Below, piece by piece: positions 9,635 through 54,257 of a stretch of 64,000 bases of DNA. A program made the position numbers and the translations under genes. Under the pieces are notes generated by a model, which saw only the letters and a program-made list of their open reading frames with translations, searched no databases and was not told where the DNA came from. Source of the stretch: Octopus vulgaris (Eukaryota); NCBI GenBank assembly GCA_951406725.2, contig OX597827.1, positions 620,001 through 684,000 on the forward strand. The letters are read 5' to 3'. Numbering within the stretch: position 1 is the first letter of the stretch; each line of letters starts with the position of its first letter.

Positions 9635-9925
9635 AAAACAATTGCAGTGTGGAAGGTGTTTATAAGCCATTTAAGAAACACACAAAACCGTTAGATTCAC
9701 TTCAACATTTAATTTTAATTTGTCAAAATATTTTCGTTGCTTTGAGACTGCGACCTGTTCACTGCAAAACTTTGAGATGCAGCATGAAGTTTTGTCAGTG
9801 AACAGGTCGCAGTCTCAAAACGACGAAAATATTTTGACAAATTAAAATTAAATGTTGAAGTGAATCTAACGGTTTTGTGTGTTTCTTAAATGGCTTATAA
9901 ACACCTTCCACACTGCAATTGTTTT
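9635..9925. mobile_element. About 290-bp near-perfect palindrome with two divergent hammerhead folds, flanked by (TA)n; probably derived from a Penelope-like pLTR
   Basis: Arms aaaacaattgcagtgtggaagg... and ...ccttccacactgcaattgtttt are near-identical reverse complements. A short unpaired tail runs to about 9980, with (TA)n on both sides. Confidence 0.8.
9791..9841 (+). ncRNA. Minimal type I hammerhead-like ribozyme, G3:C8 core variant (mirror copy on minus strand at about 9718-9768)
   Basis: Stem I TTTGTCA/TGACAAA; core GTGAACA; extra G; stem II GTCG(C)...(G)CGAC; GAAA; palindromic ATAT stem-III loop; U16.1-U17. Confidence 0.6.
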
Positions 9926-10280
9926 CGCTCCAGCACACGATCTCAGATCAAGTCACTCACTATGCAAGTACATCTCCATAATATATATATATATATATAT
10001 ATATATATATATATATATATATATATATATACATACATATATATATATATATATATATGTATATATATATATATATATTGATAAGCCATGAAAATGACAA
10101 AATATTGATAGCCACCACTCCTGAAGGGGCTTAGAGGTGAGTTGTCTTGCTGTCTATGACGTTCAAGTGTTTTAATACTCACTGCTAAGTGAAAGTCATC
10201 CCCTAAGTGCTATCCTTCAGTAAAGTGGTGAGCAAGCAAAACACATAGATTGACTATGTGTAGTTGATAACACACACACA

Positions 10281-10484
10281 CAGTCCATCAAGAAAATGTA
10301 TGCACACCTCAGGAAAGGAAAAAATCTGTATAAATATTGAACTTGTATAAGTACCCTTATAAATATAGATACCTCTTTTATCAAATTGTGATAACACTGA
10401 AGAAATTACAATAGCACTGAATTAAAATATTTATAAAGATTTTTCCTTTCTTGAAGTGTGTACACATTTTTCAATTGGACTCTG
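10281..10484. mobile_element. Tc1/mariner-like MITE with about 55-bp imperfect TIRs
   Basis: cagtccatcaagaaaatgt...aaatatt versus aatattt...ttggactctg, ending in (TA)n. Confidence 0.6.
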
Positions 10485-10672
10485 TATATATATATATATA
10501 TATATATATACACACATATATACATATATTATATATATATATATATATATATACATATATATATATATACATATATATATATATATATATATATATATAT
10601 ATATATATATATATATATACAGATATTGGACTCTGTGTATGTATATATATATATATATATATAATATATAGT

Positions 10673-11010
10673 GAAGGCACATGGCTCAGTGATTAGAGCG
10701 TTGAGCTTATGATCGCGGGTTGTGAGTTCGAATCCCGAACTGGGCTGCATGTTGTGTTCTTGAGCAAGACACTTTATTTCACATTGCTCCAGTTCACTCA
10801 GCCGTAGAAATGAGTTGTGACTTCAATGGTGCCAAGCTGTATTGGCCTTTGCCTTTCCCTTGGATAACACTGGTGGCATGGAGAGAGGATGCCAGTATGC
10901 ATGGGCGACTGCTGGTCTTCCATGAAACAACCTTGCCTGGACTTGTGCCTGGGAGGGTAACTTTCTAGGTGCAATCCCATGGTTAGTGTCGTGACCAAAG
11001 GGCGTCTCAG
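10673..11010 (+). mobile_element. tRNA-derived SINE family C
   Basis: A box TGGCTCAGTGA, B box GAGTTCGAATCCC, core gttgtgttcttgagcaagacactt. Related copies near 15620-15870 (-), 19230-19410 and 51930-52170. Confidence 0.75.
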
Positions 11011-51124: not shown

Positions 51125-51250
51125 ATATAATCAAAATAAGCAACAAGTATATCCGAGGTAGAGTGGTACAATTGTTTCATGTTACTTCATTTTATTAAAC
51201 ACTGTAAGTATTACATCAGTTTTGAAATGCCGAGCAATCTTCAGCCACTT
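51125..51250 (-). mobile_element. Degenerate pLTR/HHR-like remnant next to (CTAT)n
   Basis: Minus strand CTGAAGA TTGC-TCG-GCA..C AAAAC..GTA, followed by TTTAATAAAATG. Confidence 0.35.
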
Positions 51251-52353
51251 ATAGAAATTTTCCAATCAAACGGACAATGCAAATTCTTATCTTTATTTCG
51301 TTTGCCAACATTATAAAGAGGGTAGATATATAGACAGAGAGGTTGATTTTATTCTTAAGAACATGATAGCAGTAAATTTACGCTCTGACTAGATTTTTTC
51401 ACTTTGTAATTTAGATCTGTCAGTGGGGAGGGGGATTTTATTTTTGGCTGGATGTCTCCATCCAACCAAAAACGAAATTTGAGAAAATAGTTTCTCGTTT
51501 TGACGAGTAAGTAAAGAAAGTACACATATTCGTAATTTTAAGCAGACTACACCTTGACTTGTTACTATGGAATCAAGCAGCAATGTATCTGTAGCTTTGG
51601 ATTGGCTAAAATTATCCAAAATTTACAAACTTTAAAAGCTATTAACTTATTATTTATTAATTTATGGCGAAAATGAATTACTTTTTCATAGCTAGCATAC
51701 AAAACTATATCAGTACACCATATTTGAAAACAATTGGAGCAAAATAAAAAAATTTTTAAAGAAAATTGTAACAGCAACAGAAAAGATGTCAAGTATAATT
51801 GGTAGCTGATGTCAATTTTGGATTCAAACATTTGAACTGTTGTATAACAATCAAAAAGGAAAAAAATAACAAAATGTTGGGATAAATATCTAGAAAATAT
51901 TTTCCCGTTTGGATTTATTAAGAGAAGTGAAAGTACGTGACTTAGTGATTAGGATGTTGCACTCACGATGACAAGATCGTAGTTTCGGTTCTCGGATCGG
52001 GCGGTGCGTTGTGTTCTTCAAAACAAATCACTTCATTTCGAGTTGTTACAACTCGCTCAGCTGCAAATGTGTAAGCCTACGAGGGAGTGGTATCGCGTTC
52101 AGTTGGGAGTTTTGTGATCTATGCCACGGGAACGGAATCCTAAGACTGGAGACAGTAAAATTCATGCTATGAGAAAGAGAGAAAGAGAGAGAGAGAGAGA
52201 GAAAGAGAAAGTGGTGAGAATAATCACACATGTGCATTACAAAACAATTTATATAAAGACGAAGTATTTAATATGAAAAAAGGCCCATTAATAGATTGAA
52301 TCACATTAAATTAGGGTCATAACAGTGTGTATAAGGGATTTAAAATGGAGATA

Positions 52354-52862
52354 CAGTAGTCTTGAATGATCACAACAAAGAAGATATGTTTATATTACCT
52401 TTAATCCGGGTCATGTCTAGCTTTGTTTCTATCTATATACAAGGCACATATAGTCTCGTTTATCACTGATTCACTTATTGCTGATCTGCGATTACACGGT
52501 ACGCTCAATTGTAAACCATGTCACAGATTGATCTGTGATAACACGAATCGACGGCCAGTCGATGATTCTGCTTGTACCACAAAGACGCACTTCCGCCATC
52601 GATCACCCACAATGCTCAGCCACCCAGAATGCATTGACTATTGCATGCGTTTACACGACCGTGCTGCGAGGTCGTGTATCTTTTATACGGATTTACTACT
52701 CGTACCCATCATCAACAAGGTTCCTCGTTCTAACAAACGACGCAGACCTTTATTAAAGATAAAGTAGAGATGAAGAAAATAAGTGACGGTGAAAGCTTCG
52801 CCTCTGTCGGCTGCCAGTTCGGTGTCAAAGAATCTACCATTCGTTCCATTTGCAAAATGAGT
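52354..52862 (+). mobile_element. pogo/Tigger-type transposon remnant (HTH-psq / CENP-B N-terminal region)
   Basis: Starts TA|CAGTAGTC. Encodes KDKVEMKKISDGESFASVGCQFGVKESTIRSICK. Confidence 0.6.
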
Positions 52863-54139
52863 GGAGTTGATTTATCTATTACTGATTCAGTTATCAGAGA
52901 TTTATCTTTTTTAACCAAACTTCCGTGATAAACAAAGATAGACTTGTAATATATTTCATCAGTCTATCTTGAAGAAAAAAGCAGATTAAAGGTCGCTCCT
53001 TTCTATATATATAACAATAATGTGGGATCAACACAGAAAGAAGAGGGTGACAGGCGAGGCGGAAACGAACGAATGGAAGAGAGTAGACATTAACGACACC
53101 CTCGGTACCTGATGATGGTATTAAACCGTGTGATACATTAAGTCAATCTCCCAAGTTGGTTACAGCAGGATATGAACTCAGGACCTAAAGAATCAGGACG
53201 AATTCCAGAAGACAAATCCACCGATGCACCAACACTTGCGCCAATTCATTGAACTTCACAAGTATCGGCCCCAGAAGTATGAAAGGTAAAGTTGACCGTT
53301 GACCCTCAGCGGGATTTGAACTCGAACGCAATAATCTGAAATAAATACTACAATGTATATGGACCAATGCTCTCCCCACTCTGCCAACTCAACGTCTCTG
53401 TGACTGAGTAAGGAATGAATAGCAGAATATTTAAGGTAATTCCGGGAGTGCACAATAGGGAATTCTTTCTGATTTTGGCACGAGGTGGGACGGAGGGCAA
53501 GTCGATTGCATCGACCCCATATTTAACTGGTACTTTTCGCTTCGAAAGGACGAAAGGCAAAGTGACCACAGCACATGCGCGCGAGCTGTGCTCACTTAGT
53601 GTAAGAATTTCAATATATATATATACACACATGTAGGTGCAGGAGAGGCTGTGTGGTAAGTAGATTGCTTACCAACCACATGGTTCTCGTTTCAGTCTCA
53701 CTGCATGGCACCCATATATATATATATATATATATATATATATATATATATATATATATATATATATATATATATAGTGACGTATATTTGCCATTTGAAT
53801 ATGGCTAACCCCTAAGGGTGGATGCTACTGTAGTTTGTAGCCCCAGGAGGACACCTCCTCCAGCTGGCTATAGGCACACTTTCTGTGCCCTATCAGTATT
53901 TGCGAAGGGAAGCCATCCTTCCCGTCTTCAACTTATGATACACACGGACTCGAGTTTCAGGGTATTTATAACTCGCTCTGAGATTTATCATTGTTATATA
54001 TATATATATATATATATATATATATATATATATATATATATATATATATATATATATATATATGTAGGTCCTGGGTTGAGTCGGGGTTAACCACAGTAAA
54101 TAAGGTACTCAATACATAGCAGAGTAAATTAATTTATTA

Positions 54140-54257
54140 TATAGAAGGAGCTTCTACAGGACTAGAACTGTTTCATTCAAAAGAAATCATCAGGAAGCGC
54201 TTCCTGATGATTTCTTTTGAATGAAACAGTTCTAGTCCTGTAGAAGCTCCTTCTATA
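54140..54257. mobile_element. Perfect spacer-less 118-bp palindrome of two head-to-head hammerheads; the element extends left to about 54066 and sits between (TA)n tracts
   Basis: The 59-bp arms are exact reverse complements, centred on gaagc|gcttc. Read on the minus strand, the left extension has AATAAA after the HHR, as in Penelope-like pLTRs. Confidence 0.9.
54199..54247 (+). ncRNA. Type I hammerhead ribozyme with intact core (identical copy on minus strand, 54150-54198)
   Basis: GCTTC CTGATGA T-TTC-TTTT-GAA-T GAAA CAG-TTCTAGTC-CTG TA GAAGC. Stem I is 5 bp, stem II is 3 bp with U-U closing, stem III is 4 bp, and predicted GUA cleavage is after 54242. Confidence 0.75.

Follow-up and report, generated by a model that had tools for sequence, protein, structure and literature searches.

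We analysed a 64,000-nt stretch of Octopus vulgaris DNA (GenBank assembly GCA_951406725.2, contig OX597827.1, positions 620,001 to 684,000 of the forward strand; hereafter the window), in which a protocadherin gene is accompanied by four palindromic elements, termed F1, F2, F3 and E4. The palindromes carry hammerhead ribozyme (HHR) folds or remnants of them, and we relate their arms to the pseudo-long terminal repeats (pLTRs) of Penelope-like elements (PLEs). How such head-to-head pairs of arms come about is the subject of this report. Numbered from the first nucleotide of the window, the features are as follows.

4535-6964, plus strand: large exon of the host protocadherin, 98% identical to Octopus protein P0001
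9635-9769, minus strand: tailless arm of F1, which copies the pLTR end in antisense; damaged HHR, with 1 nt deleted from stem I and a stem II mismatch
9775-9981, plus strand: tailed arm of F1, a monomer of about 205 nt of a Penelope/Poseidon-type pLTR, subfamily A
9791-9841, plus strand: type I HHR of F1, with stem I (9791-9797/9835-9841), swapped core G3 (9798)-C8 (9803), unpaired G (9805), stem II, G12-A14 (9825-9827), 6-nt palindromic stem III (9828-9833) and U17 (9834); predicted cut 9834/9835
9926-9981, plus strand: one-sided tail of F1, about 55 nt
12708-12856, plus strand: exon 2 of the host protocadherin, 100% identical to P0001
32045-32376, minus strand: long arm of F2, ending at the distal 3' end of the family; HHR core at 32344, G12 lost
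32377-32596, plus strand: short arm of F2; HHR at 32390-32449
54064-54198, minus strand: tailed arm of F3, with tail at 54064-54129; intact HHR, core at 54193
54199-54267, plus strand: tailless arm of F3
54199-54247, plus strand: HHR of F3, with a 5-bp stem I, canonical C3-G8 core (54204-54210), U10.1.U11.1 over a 3-bp stem II and a 4-bp stem III; predicted cut after 54242
56282-56660, plus strand: broken GIY-YIG endonuclease remnant of a Neptune/Nematis-type PLE, related to E4 by adjacency only
56745-56897, no strand assigned: E4, a decayed head-to-head pair; core at 56800 (minus) and degenerate core at 56837 (plus), stems I and III not resolvable

By the exon matches, F1 is in intron 1 of the protocadherin gene, before exon 2. 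F2, F3 and E4 follow exon 2 and likely lie in intron 2, given a match to the last exon just past the window end (locus L301:2528-2629; G000:C14:686528) that has 88% identity to P0001, one in-frame stop and a fitting splice phase. A first-pass annotation had put two of the palindromes in protocadherin introns; the intronic placement stands, and the number is probably four.

All four palindromes were recovered where that annotation had placed them, and they are as dissimilar to one another as it had claimed, between-family blastn matches reaching at most 14 nt (E>=0.18). Arm identity is 97% over 135 nt in F1, 94% over the inner 175 nt and 87% overall in F2, 96% in F3 and 74% in E4, for which we found two weak relatives, one of them likewise palindromic. 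The elements exceed their palindromes through one-sided extensions in F1 (9926-9981), F3 (54064-54129) and F2 (about 32045-32155). Flanks of (TA)n or TA-rich sequence, described earlier for all, were seen for F1 and F3, which sit in (TA)n, and for F2, which has short TA-rich flanks, whereas E4 is flanked by (CT)n(TA)n on a single side. The proposal that each strand encodes an HHR holds in full for F3 alone: the minus arm of F1 is damaged, the F2 arms lack G12, and E4 retains the core and stem II only. A type I HHR descriptor found three sites in the window (9798 plus, 54204 plus and 54193 minus), all inside palindromes, versus a mean of 0.33 matches in 30 dinucleotide shuffles; this descriptor, which allowed C-G, U-A or G-C as the 3-8 pair, was written after the motifs had been seen and was thus not blind. 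Five other non-simple palindromes or close inverted repeats in the window (31604-31705, 25842-26018, 48837-49140, 13140-13212 and 11718-12052) gave no descriptor match; that at 25842-26018 has a core-like word at 25885 (minus).

Searches with exact words returned 6842 matches for F1 and 6421 for F3, and none for reversed control words. Taken in order of position, the first 60 F1 loci comprise 33 pairs of a tailed and a tailless arm, 16 tailed singles, 10 tailless singles and one fragment pair; 7 of the 33 pairs share junction and flanks and were counted once, leaving 27 independent pairs. A later set of 56 F1 loci contained 30 one-tail pairs, one pair with a 36-nt tail fragment as partner and 25 singles, and the 32 F3 loci sampled contained 25 close pairs and 7 singles (5 tailed, 2 tailless). 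Seven wider F3 pairs, picked for their spacing, are all one-tailed; an eighth picked locus, L166, is a passenger in a tandem repeat. Pair centres are distinct in 27/27 F1 pairs, 22 distinct centres occur among 25 F3 pairs, and F3 spacers range from 29 to 2584 bp. The impression from best-match searches that all copies are palindromic was discarded as a bias of the palindromic query, the position-ordered samples showing single arms as well. The F2 family is older (about 80% identity; 16 distinct loci): most of its loci hold a lone arm, a partial tandem with a period of about 400 nt or an inverted pair whose spacer varies in length, and its arms tend to end at either of two 3' points that lie about 85 nt from each other.

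Several F1 loci depart from the simple pair. One F1 palindrome is present at least 7 times on contig C1 together with its flanks (L113, L115, L150, L151, L155, L156, L159), and L256, among the further F1 loci, looks like this lineage again. An array of 30 tailless F1 arms with a period of about 166 nt, a short TA run before each arm and an inverted tail-bearing F1 fragment at its start (L298; G000:C2:17908000-17913100) is a candidate retrozyme-like source in which HHR dimers could form. At L299 (G000:C2:23579000-23580000), the junction of an F1 pair contains three additional copies of a 64-nt piece of the 5' end, which suggest repeated template jumps. F1 sequence is also present in RNA reads, some of which cross inverted junctions; the reads are unstranded, so that strand, start and cleavage are not readable from them. 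When mapped to L148 (571-805 reads per run), they covered only the 5' part of the arm, L148 being on the minus strand, and their starts and ends did not pile up, which in random-fragmented, unstranded reads is uninformative on cleavage.

The sequences adjoining F1 and F3 support a derivation of the two from pLTRs of endonuclease-bearing PLEs belonging to different families, in line with the earlier suggestion of a PLE pLTR origin from several families. F1 is found directly 3' of a Penelope/Poseidon-type reverse transcriptase-endonuclease (RT-EN): at L225, a broken open reading frame (ORF) with RT and GIY-YIG domains is followed on the same strand by about 760 nt common to other loci and then by an F1 arm, and L224 has kept the endonuclease end at the same place before the F1 arm. 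F3 is found 3' of a Neptune/Nematis-type RT-EN: at L232, RT and GIY-YIG domains with a linker zinc finger precede a microsatellite-rich region of 3 kb and then an F3 arm, and the endonuclease end is kept before the F3 arm of L231. These clade labels rest on motifs, without a tree, with the Neptune/Nematis type assigned by the criteria of PMC8557442, and Pfam by itself returned no more than a sub-threshold RVT_1 match. At the long-spacer F3 loci L163-L165, no parent ORF lies between the arms. A frame of about 30 codons, opening with ATG, spans the outer arm and the tail in the window (9892-9981) and in F1 copies, as expected if pLTR and tail held the start of a PLE ORF; its continuation was not found.

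Pairs in these families follow countable rules. Exactly one arm is tailed in 89/91 F1 and F3 pairs (27 independent and 30/31 further F1 pairs; 25/25 close and 7/7 wider F3 pairs), the exceptions being the F1 fragment pair, which has no tail, and the F1 pair with the 36-nt tail-fragment partner. The 3' ends of tailless arms cluster at q145-154 in 40/41 F1 arms and at q64-77 in 27/27 F3 arms, and single arms, with and without tail, end at the same two 3' points, which bracket the tail. Most arms begin at one fixed 5' point, which precedes HHR stem I by 0-15 nt; a TATA-like box lies about 30 nt above it, as seen in F1 and F3 copies that keep upstream sequence. This fixed point is likely the 5' end of the RNA, which accounts for a symmetry centre immediately 5' of the HHR; the outer ends of a pair are both RNA 3' ends. 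A reading of the F1 arms as products of splicing, which retains some plausibility, was set aside, since the partner arm accounts for the G that precedes the start and the TATA spacing suits F1 and F3 alike.

Among F1 pairs with non-microsatellite flanks, 16/21 show a target duplication of 10-14 nt, versus 3/420 cross-locus comparisons (55 pairs were examined and 9 loci left out; duplications were measured in F1, F3 being nearly always in (TA)n). Either arm may be 5'-truncated, and arms are shortened independently. In 8/27 F1 pairs, the tailed arm lacks at least 40 nt of 5' sequence present in the tailless arm, so that each arm holds sequence that the other lacks; 3 of these 8 pairs have complex junctions. 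Short self-complementary overlaps occur at many pair centres. Moreover, some pairs unite different sequence types. The F1 loop II types B and C differ by two substitutions and an indel (2565 and 1168 arms genome-wide), and the two haplotypes are joined at six loci (L114, L128, L130, L266, L267 and L296); L258 joins haplotypes A and C at three linked markers, giving seven loci with arms of two established haplotypes.

Target duplications, truncation of either arm and two-haplotype loci fit two separately primed complementary DNAs (cDNAs), and they fit the behaviour of a Poseidon protein in vitro, which nicks and extends both strands, uses two RT start sites that define the tail, accepts uncleaved RNA and is predicted to be a dimer (PMC11167929). 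We consider it probable that each palindrome consists of two PLE end-pieces joined head to head and made anew at each insertion by reverse transcription primed from both target nicks. Under this proposal, a short RNA from the pLTR promoter would be bound by the PLE protein, probably as a dimer, which would nick both strands of AT-rich DNA with an offset of about 12 nt. Priming would occur at the end of the tail from one nick and at its start from the other, and both cDNAs would extend toward the RNA 5' end, stop independently and be united by end-joining with short overlaps or fillers, placing the symmetry centre just 5' of the HHR, while the fixation of only one cDNA would leave a single arm. 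As templates, both cDNAs would usually have a single RNA, or RNAs made at the same source locus, and in a minority of cases two different RNAs. The HHRs would be selected in the source pLTRs and be passengers in the pairs, where a long hairpin is predicted to mask them. Here, twin priming, the protein dimer and the start-site asymmetry between the nicks are what we infer. In L1 elements, twin priming, in which a second target nick primes a second cDNA, gives rise to an inversion. The L1 segments copy different parts of one RNA, whereas the octopus arms copy the same region from two fixed internal starts.

Several observations weigh against this proposal or narrow its basis. All F1 and F3 samples come from contigs C1-C2 and had to contain an intact search word. 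For F2, no parent ORF was found, nor did four PLE queries give a tblastn match in F2 loci. The transcription start is placed by the spacing of the TATA-like box, and the F1 sequence can also be read as a branch point and 3' splice site. In vitro, start sites did not differ between the strands (PMC11167929), and the one-tail rule thus calls for an asymmetry that has yet to be seen. The sampled F3 loci include no clear mixed pair, and F3 arms agree within a locus at 80/83 diagnostic sites, versus 51% across loci. Arm distances are likewise smaller within than across loci (1.6% vs 4.5% in F3; 4.2% vs 6.2% in F1), and 29 top-hit F1 copies contain 11 symmetric private non-CpG changes, versus 0.39 expected. 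Pairs that contain haplotype C comprise 24 C/C pairs versus 5 B/C and one clear A/C (14 exactly paired C/C were counted by hand; 4 single-base A/C and 14 unreadable pairs were set aside), whereas random draws from a B:C pool would make about 80% of them B/C. A random pairing of templates, which an early B/C mixing of 3/8 had suggested, was given up when the larger sample brought mixing down to about 1 in 5 of C-containing pairs. Such high within-locus likeness would also result from fold-back or from later arm-to-arm conversion.

Fold-back is the main rival. Here, the template or cDNA would snap back at the 5' end of the element and copy itself into a hairpin, one tail being trimmed at integration; PMC3846280 proposed self-priming on an antisense template, and PMC8557442 resolution of the tail by the endonuclease. 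The within-locus haplotype agreement, the symmetric private changes and the short self-complementary overlaps at many centres speak for it. Against it speak the seven loci whose arms belong to two established haplotypes, tailed arms that lack 5' sequence held by the tailless arm and vice versa, and single arms that stop at the same two points, tailed or not. We regard fold-back as unlikely, yet as the strongest of the alternatives.

The first-pass annotation had seen the double-hammerhead palindrome as a mobile class in itself. Such a palindrome would be a standard unit transcribed and reinserted whole, with a switch between HHR and hairpin. The 40 best matches for F1 and for F3 are indeed all full palindromes, and 7 F1 loci have one junction, but the best matches had been selected by a palindromic query, and the 7 identical copies share their flanks too (long flanks were seen for 3/7) and were thus copied inside a larger repeat. 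With 26/60 F1 and 7/32 F3 loci single-armed, centres that differ from pair to pair, F3 spacers of variable length, arms truncated independently and small copies devoid of the upstream TATA-like box, this claim is largely refuted, and we give such a unit very little chance. Across copies with unrelated flanks, neither F1 nor F3 shows the fixed junction and symmetric ends expected of elements resembling miniature inverted-repeat transposable elements (MITEs). The annotation had further proposed two exclusive folds. The masking hairpin finds support in predictions, in which whole palindromes favour the hairpin over the HHR by 72-76 kcal/mol and single arms come within 2-7 kcal/mol of the HHR fold; a gap of this size predicts that a pair is off and not a switch, the off state being common to any perfect hairpin and bearing no sign of selection.

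Slightly less probable still is co-option of the intronic pairs to regulate the protocadherin pre-mRNA, as a cleavage switch or as a double-stranded RNA (dsRNA) substrate for editing. Although all four palindromes likely lie in protocadherin introns and F1 sequence occurs in RNA reads, thousands of loci per family in 2.8 Gb make intronic insertions expected, the F2 copy lacks G12, the F1 arms are partly decayed, no sign of constraint is seen, and the reads, unstranded, were mapped to a different locus. A further alternative, DNA-transposon MITEs or foldback elements that target TA and have HHR letters by chance, to which the long inverted repeats and TA-rich sites might point, is refuted by asymmetric ends, variable duplications of 10-14 nt, frequent single arms, arms that continue into RT/GIY-YIG ORFs and family variation that avoids the HHR, and we attach practically no weight to it.

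Much of the architecture described here has been published: PLE units with head-to-head inverted pLTRs, one tail, duplications of 8-10 bp, a TATA-like box with initiator and microsatellite targets (Arkhipova 2013, PMC3846280; Craig 2021, PMC8557442), and dual minimal HHRs on opposite strands, 100-700 bp apart (Cervera & de la Pena 2014, PMC4209133). The octopus pairs resemble endonuclease-bearing PLE units in their inverted pLTRs, one-end tail, TATA-like box and microsatellite or AT-rich targets, and differ in that nearly all lack an ORF, tails measure 55-85 nt vs 30-40 and duplications 10-14 nt vs 8-10 bp (PMC3846280, PMC8557442). They are numerous enough for counts of one-tailed pairs and of mixed templates, and this evidence favours twin priming over the self-priming of PMC3846280. 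With Anolis Poseidon in vitro (Frangieh 2024, PMC11167929), the octopus copies share AT-rich targets, the use of both strands, two starts that bound the tail and no need for HHR cleavage; that study found start sites not to differ between strands and left inverted pairs unexplained, whereas the octopus copies imply a different start at each nick. Non-LTR retrozymes (PMC7229834, bioRxiv 10.64898/2026.07.22.740005) are likewise ORF-less type I HHR units from pLTRs, and the partial-tandem F2 unit of about 400 nt and the F1 array of 30 x 166 nt (L298) recall them. In contrast to retrozymes, most F1 and F3 copies are dispersed, as single arms or as head-to-head pairs, and have a 5' end upstream of the HHR, so their template would be an uncleaved linear RNA and not a circle.

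In line with the first-pass annotation, the folds are type I HHRs with a palindromic stem III in F1 (6 nt) and F2 (10 nt). The type I core (C3 U G A N G8 A9 ... G12 A A) together with stems I-III is present in both window arms of F3 and in the F2 majority sequence. The F2 window copy has A for G12 (32429, a CpG site) and A10.1 in both arms, A10.1 being dominant in the family (G in 3/19 arms); a change of a T-A to a G-C pair in its stem III, common to both window arms, is the single compensatory pair observed. For F3, a parse with a cut after GUC and no stem I was wrong, as a cut after GUA gives a stem I of 5-6 bp. F1 departs from the canonical C3-G8 pair, with G3-C8 in 6842 matches, a non-C base at position 8 in 408 matches and C3 in none of the 100 listed among these 408; its 3-8 pair is thus preserved as a swap and may work in an HHR-like manner. 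Family variation appears to avoid the HHR fold in F3 and largely also in F1, parts of both folds lying in the search word. In F3, counted outside that word, N7 varies in 23/47 arms and loop II at 37/208 bases, while stems I and II and positions 10.1/11.1 are at most 1% variable on the 5' side; in F1, the leader and loop II vary by 12-13%, stem III by 1% and U17 in 0/70. Compared with the PLE hammerheads of PMC4209133, the octopus folds share the type I fold within a pLTR, the unpaired base after A9 and the palindromic stem III, and are unlike them in G3-C8 with U17 (F1) and in U10.1.U11.1 and a closed 4-bp stem III (F3).

Natural U3-A8 hammerheads have been reported (PMC4209133, PMC3088659), and an engineered C3G/G8C double mutant is partly active (PMC11167929). 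In the passages of the literature consulted, we found no natural G3-C8 HHR; the PLE hammerhead variants of Lunse, Weinberg & Breaker 2017 may include one. The Rfam hammerhead families gave no match at E<=10 to one copy each of F1, F2 and F3, and for the whole window the best 150 of 335 Rfam matches held microRNA look-alikes below threshold alone; RF00163 matched 6 other loci among 73 scored. A further HHR family with a long insert in stem II was detected through RF00163 (L237, L238, L241), L237 being a 390-nt head-to-head pair. U3-A8 candidates occur at L090:2737 (minus), L214:650 (minus), L050:1021 (plus) and L221:2131/5541/8996 (minus), most with a 6-nt palindromic stem III, and that of L214 sits in a 160-nt inverted repeat. 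The fetched flanks contain many more descriptor matches with a palindromic stem III, such as a head-to-head pair in L197.

Other PLE sequences were noted beside these families. The Neptune/Nematis-type family next to E4 (L203, L204, L207-L209, L211, L214; window 56054-56300) has long Asn/Thr-rich RT-EN inserts, which resemble the N-rich inserts of rotifer Penelope elements (PMC3846280). A Poseidon-type element at L223:404-5952 (minus) is tandem, with a period of 4271 and an upstream ORF of 454 aa; no HHR in its spacer passed the descriptor. Elsewhere in the window, an ORF fragment at 28308-28850, without a Pfam match, resembles the restriction-like endonuclease end of a non-LTR element, and we take two ORF fragments within 61327-62263, without significant Pfam matches, to resemble hAT transposase.

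A wider reading, which we offer tentatively and hold to be rather doubtful, is that PLEs integrate as a complex of two proteins and two RNAs, the RNAs perhaps paired through stem III, and that the HHR owes its retention in part to a role as a fold for dimerisation or protein binding. The dimer would cut the strands about 12 nt apart and make one cDNA from each tail end, and the two RNAs could differ in source; pairing through the palindromic stem III would perhaps be comparable to retroviral RNA dimerisation. If true, this would explain thousands of copies despite the swapped G3-C8 core and U17.

As a class of elements, the palindromes are ordinary, truncated PLE insertions in octopus, and dual opposite-strand HHRs and head-to-head pLTRs with a one-sided tail were known (PMC4209133, PMC3846280, PMC8557442). 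New are the one-tail count, the 10-14 nt duplications, the truncation of either arm and the seven two-haplotype loci; our literature searches listed no study of twin priming or of a second template in PLEs, nor of octopus PLE hammerheads. The thousands of near-perfect intronic hairpins are potential dsRNA. Judged by its sequence, F1 is a natural G3-C8/U17 hammerhead fold that escapes standard descriptors and Rfam, and genomes of this kind therefore probably contain more ribozymes than have been counted. The value of these families lies in the natural experiment that they provide, the origin of PLE inverted repeats and one-sided tails being named as open in PMC8557442 and PMC11167929: young and very abundant, they turn it into countable rules, namely one tail per pair, a stagger of about 12 nt, independent truncation and occasional mixed templates.

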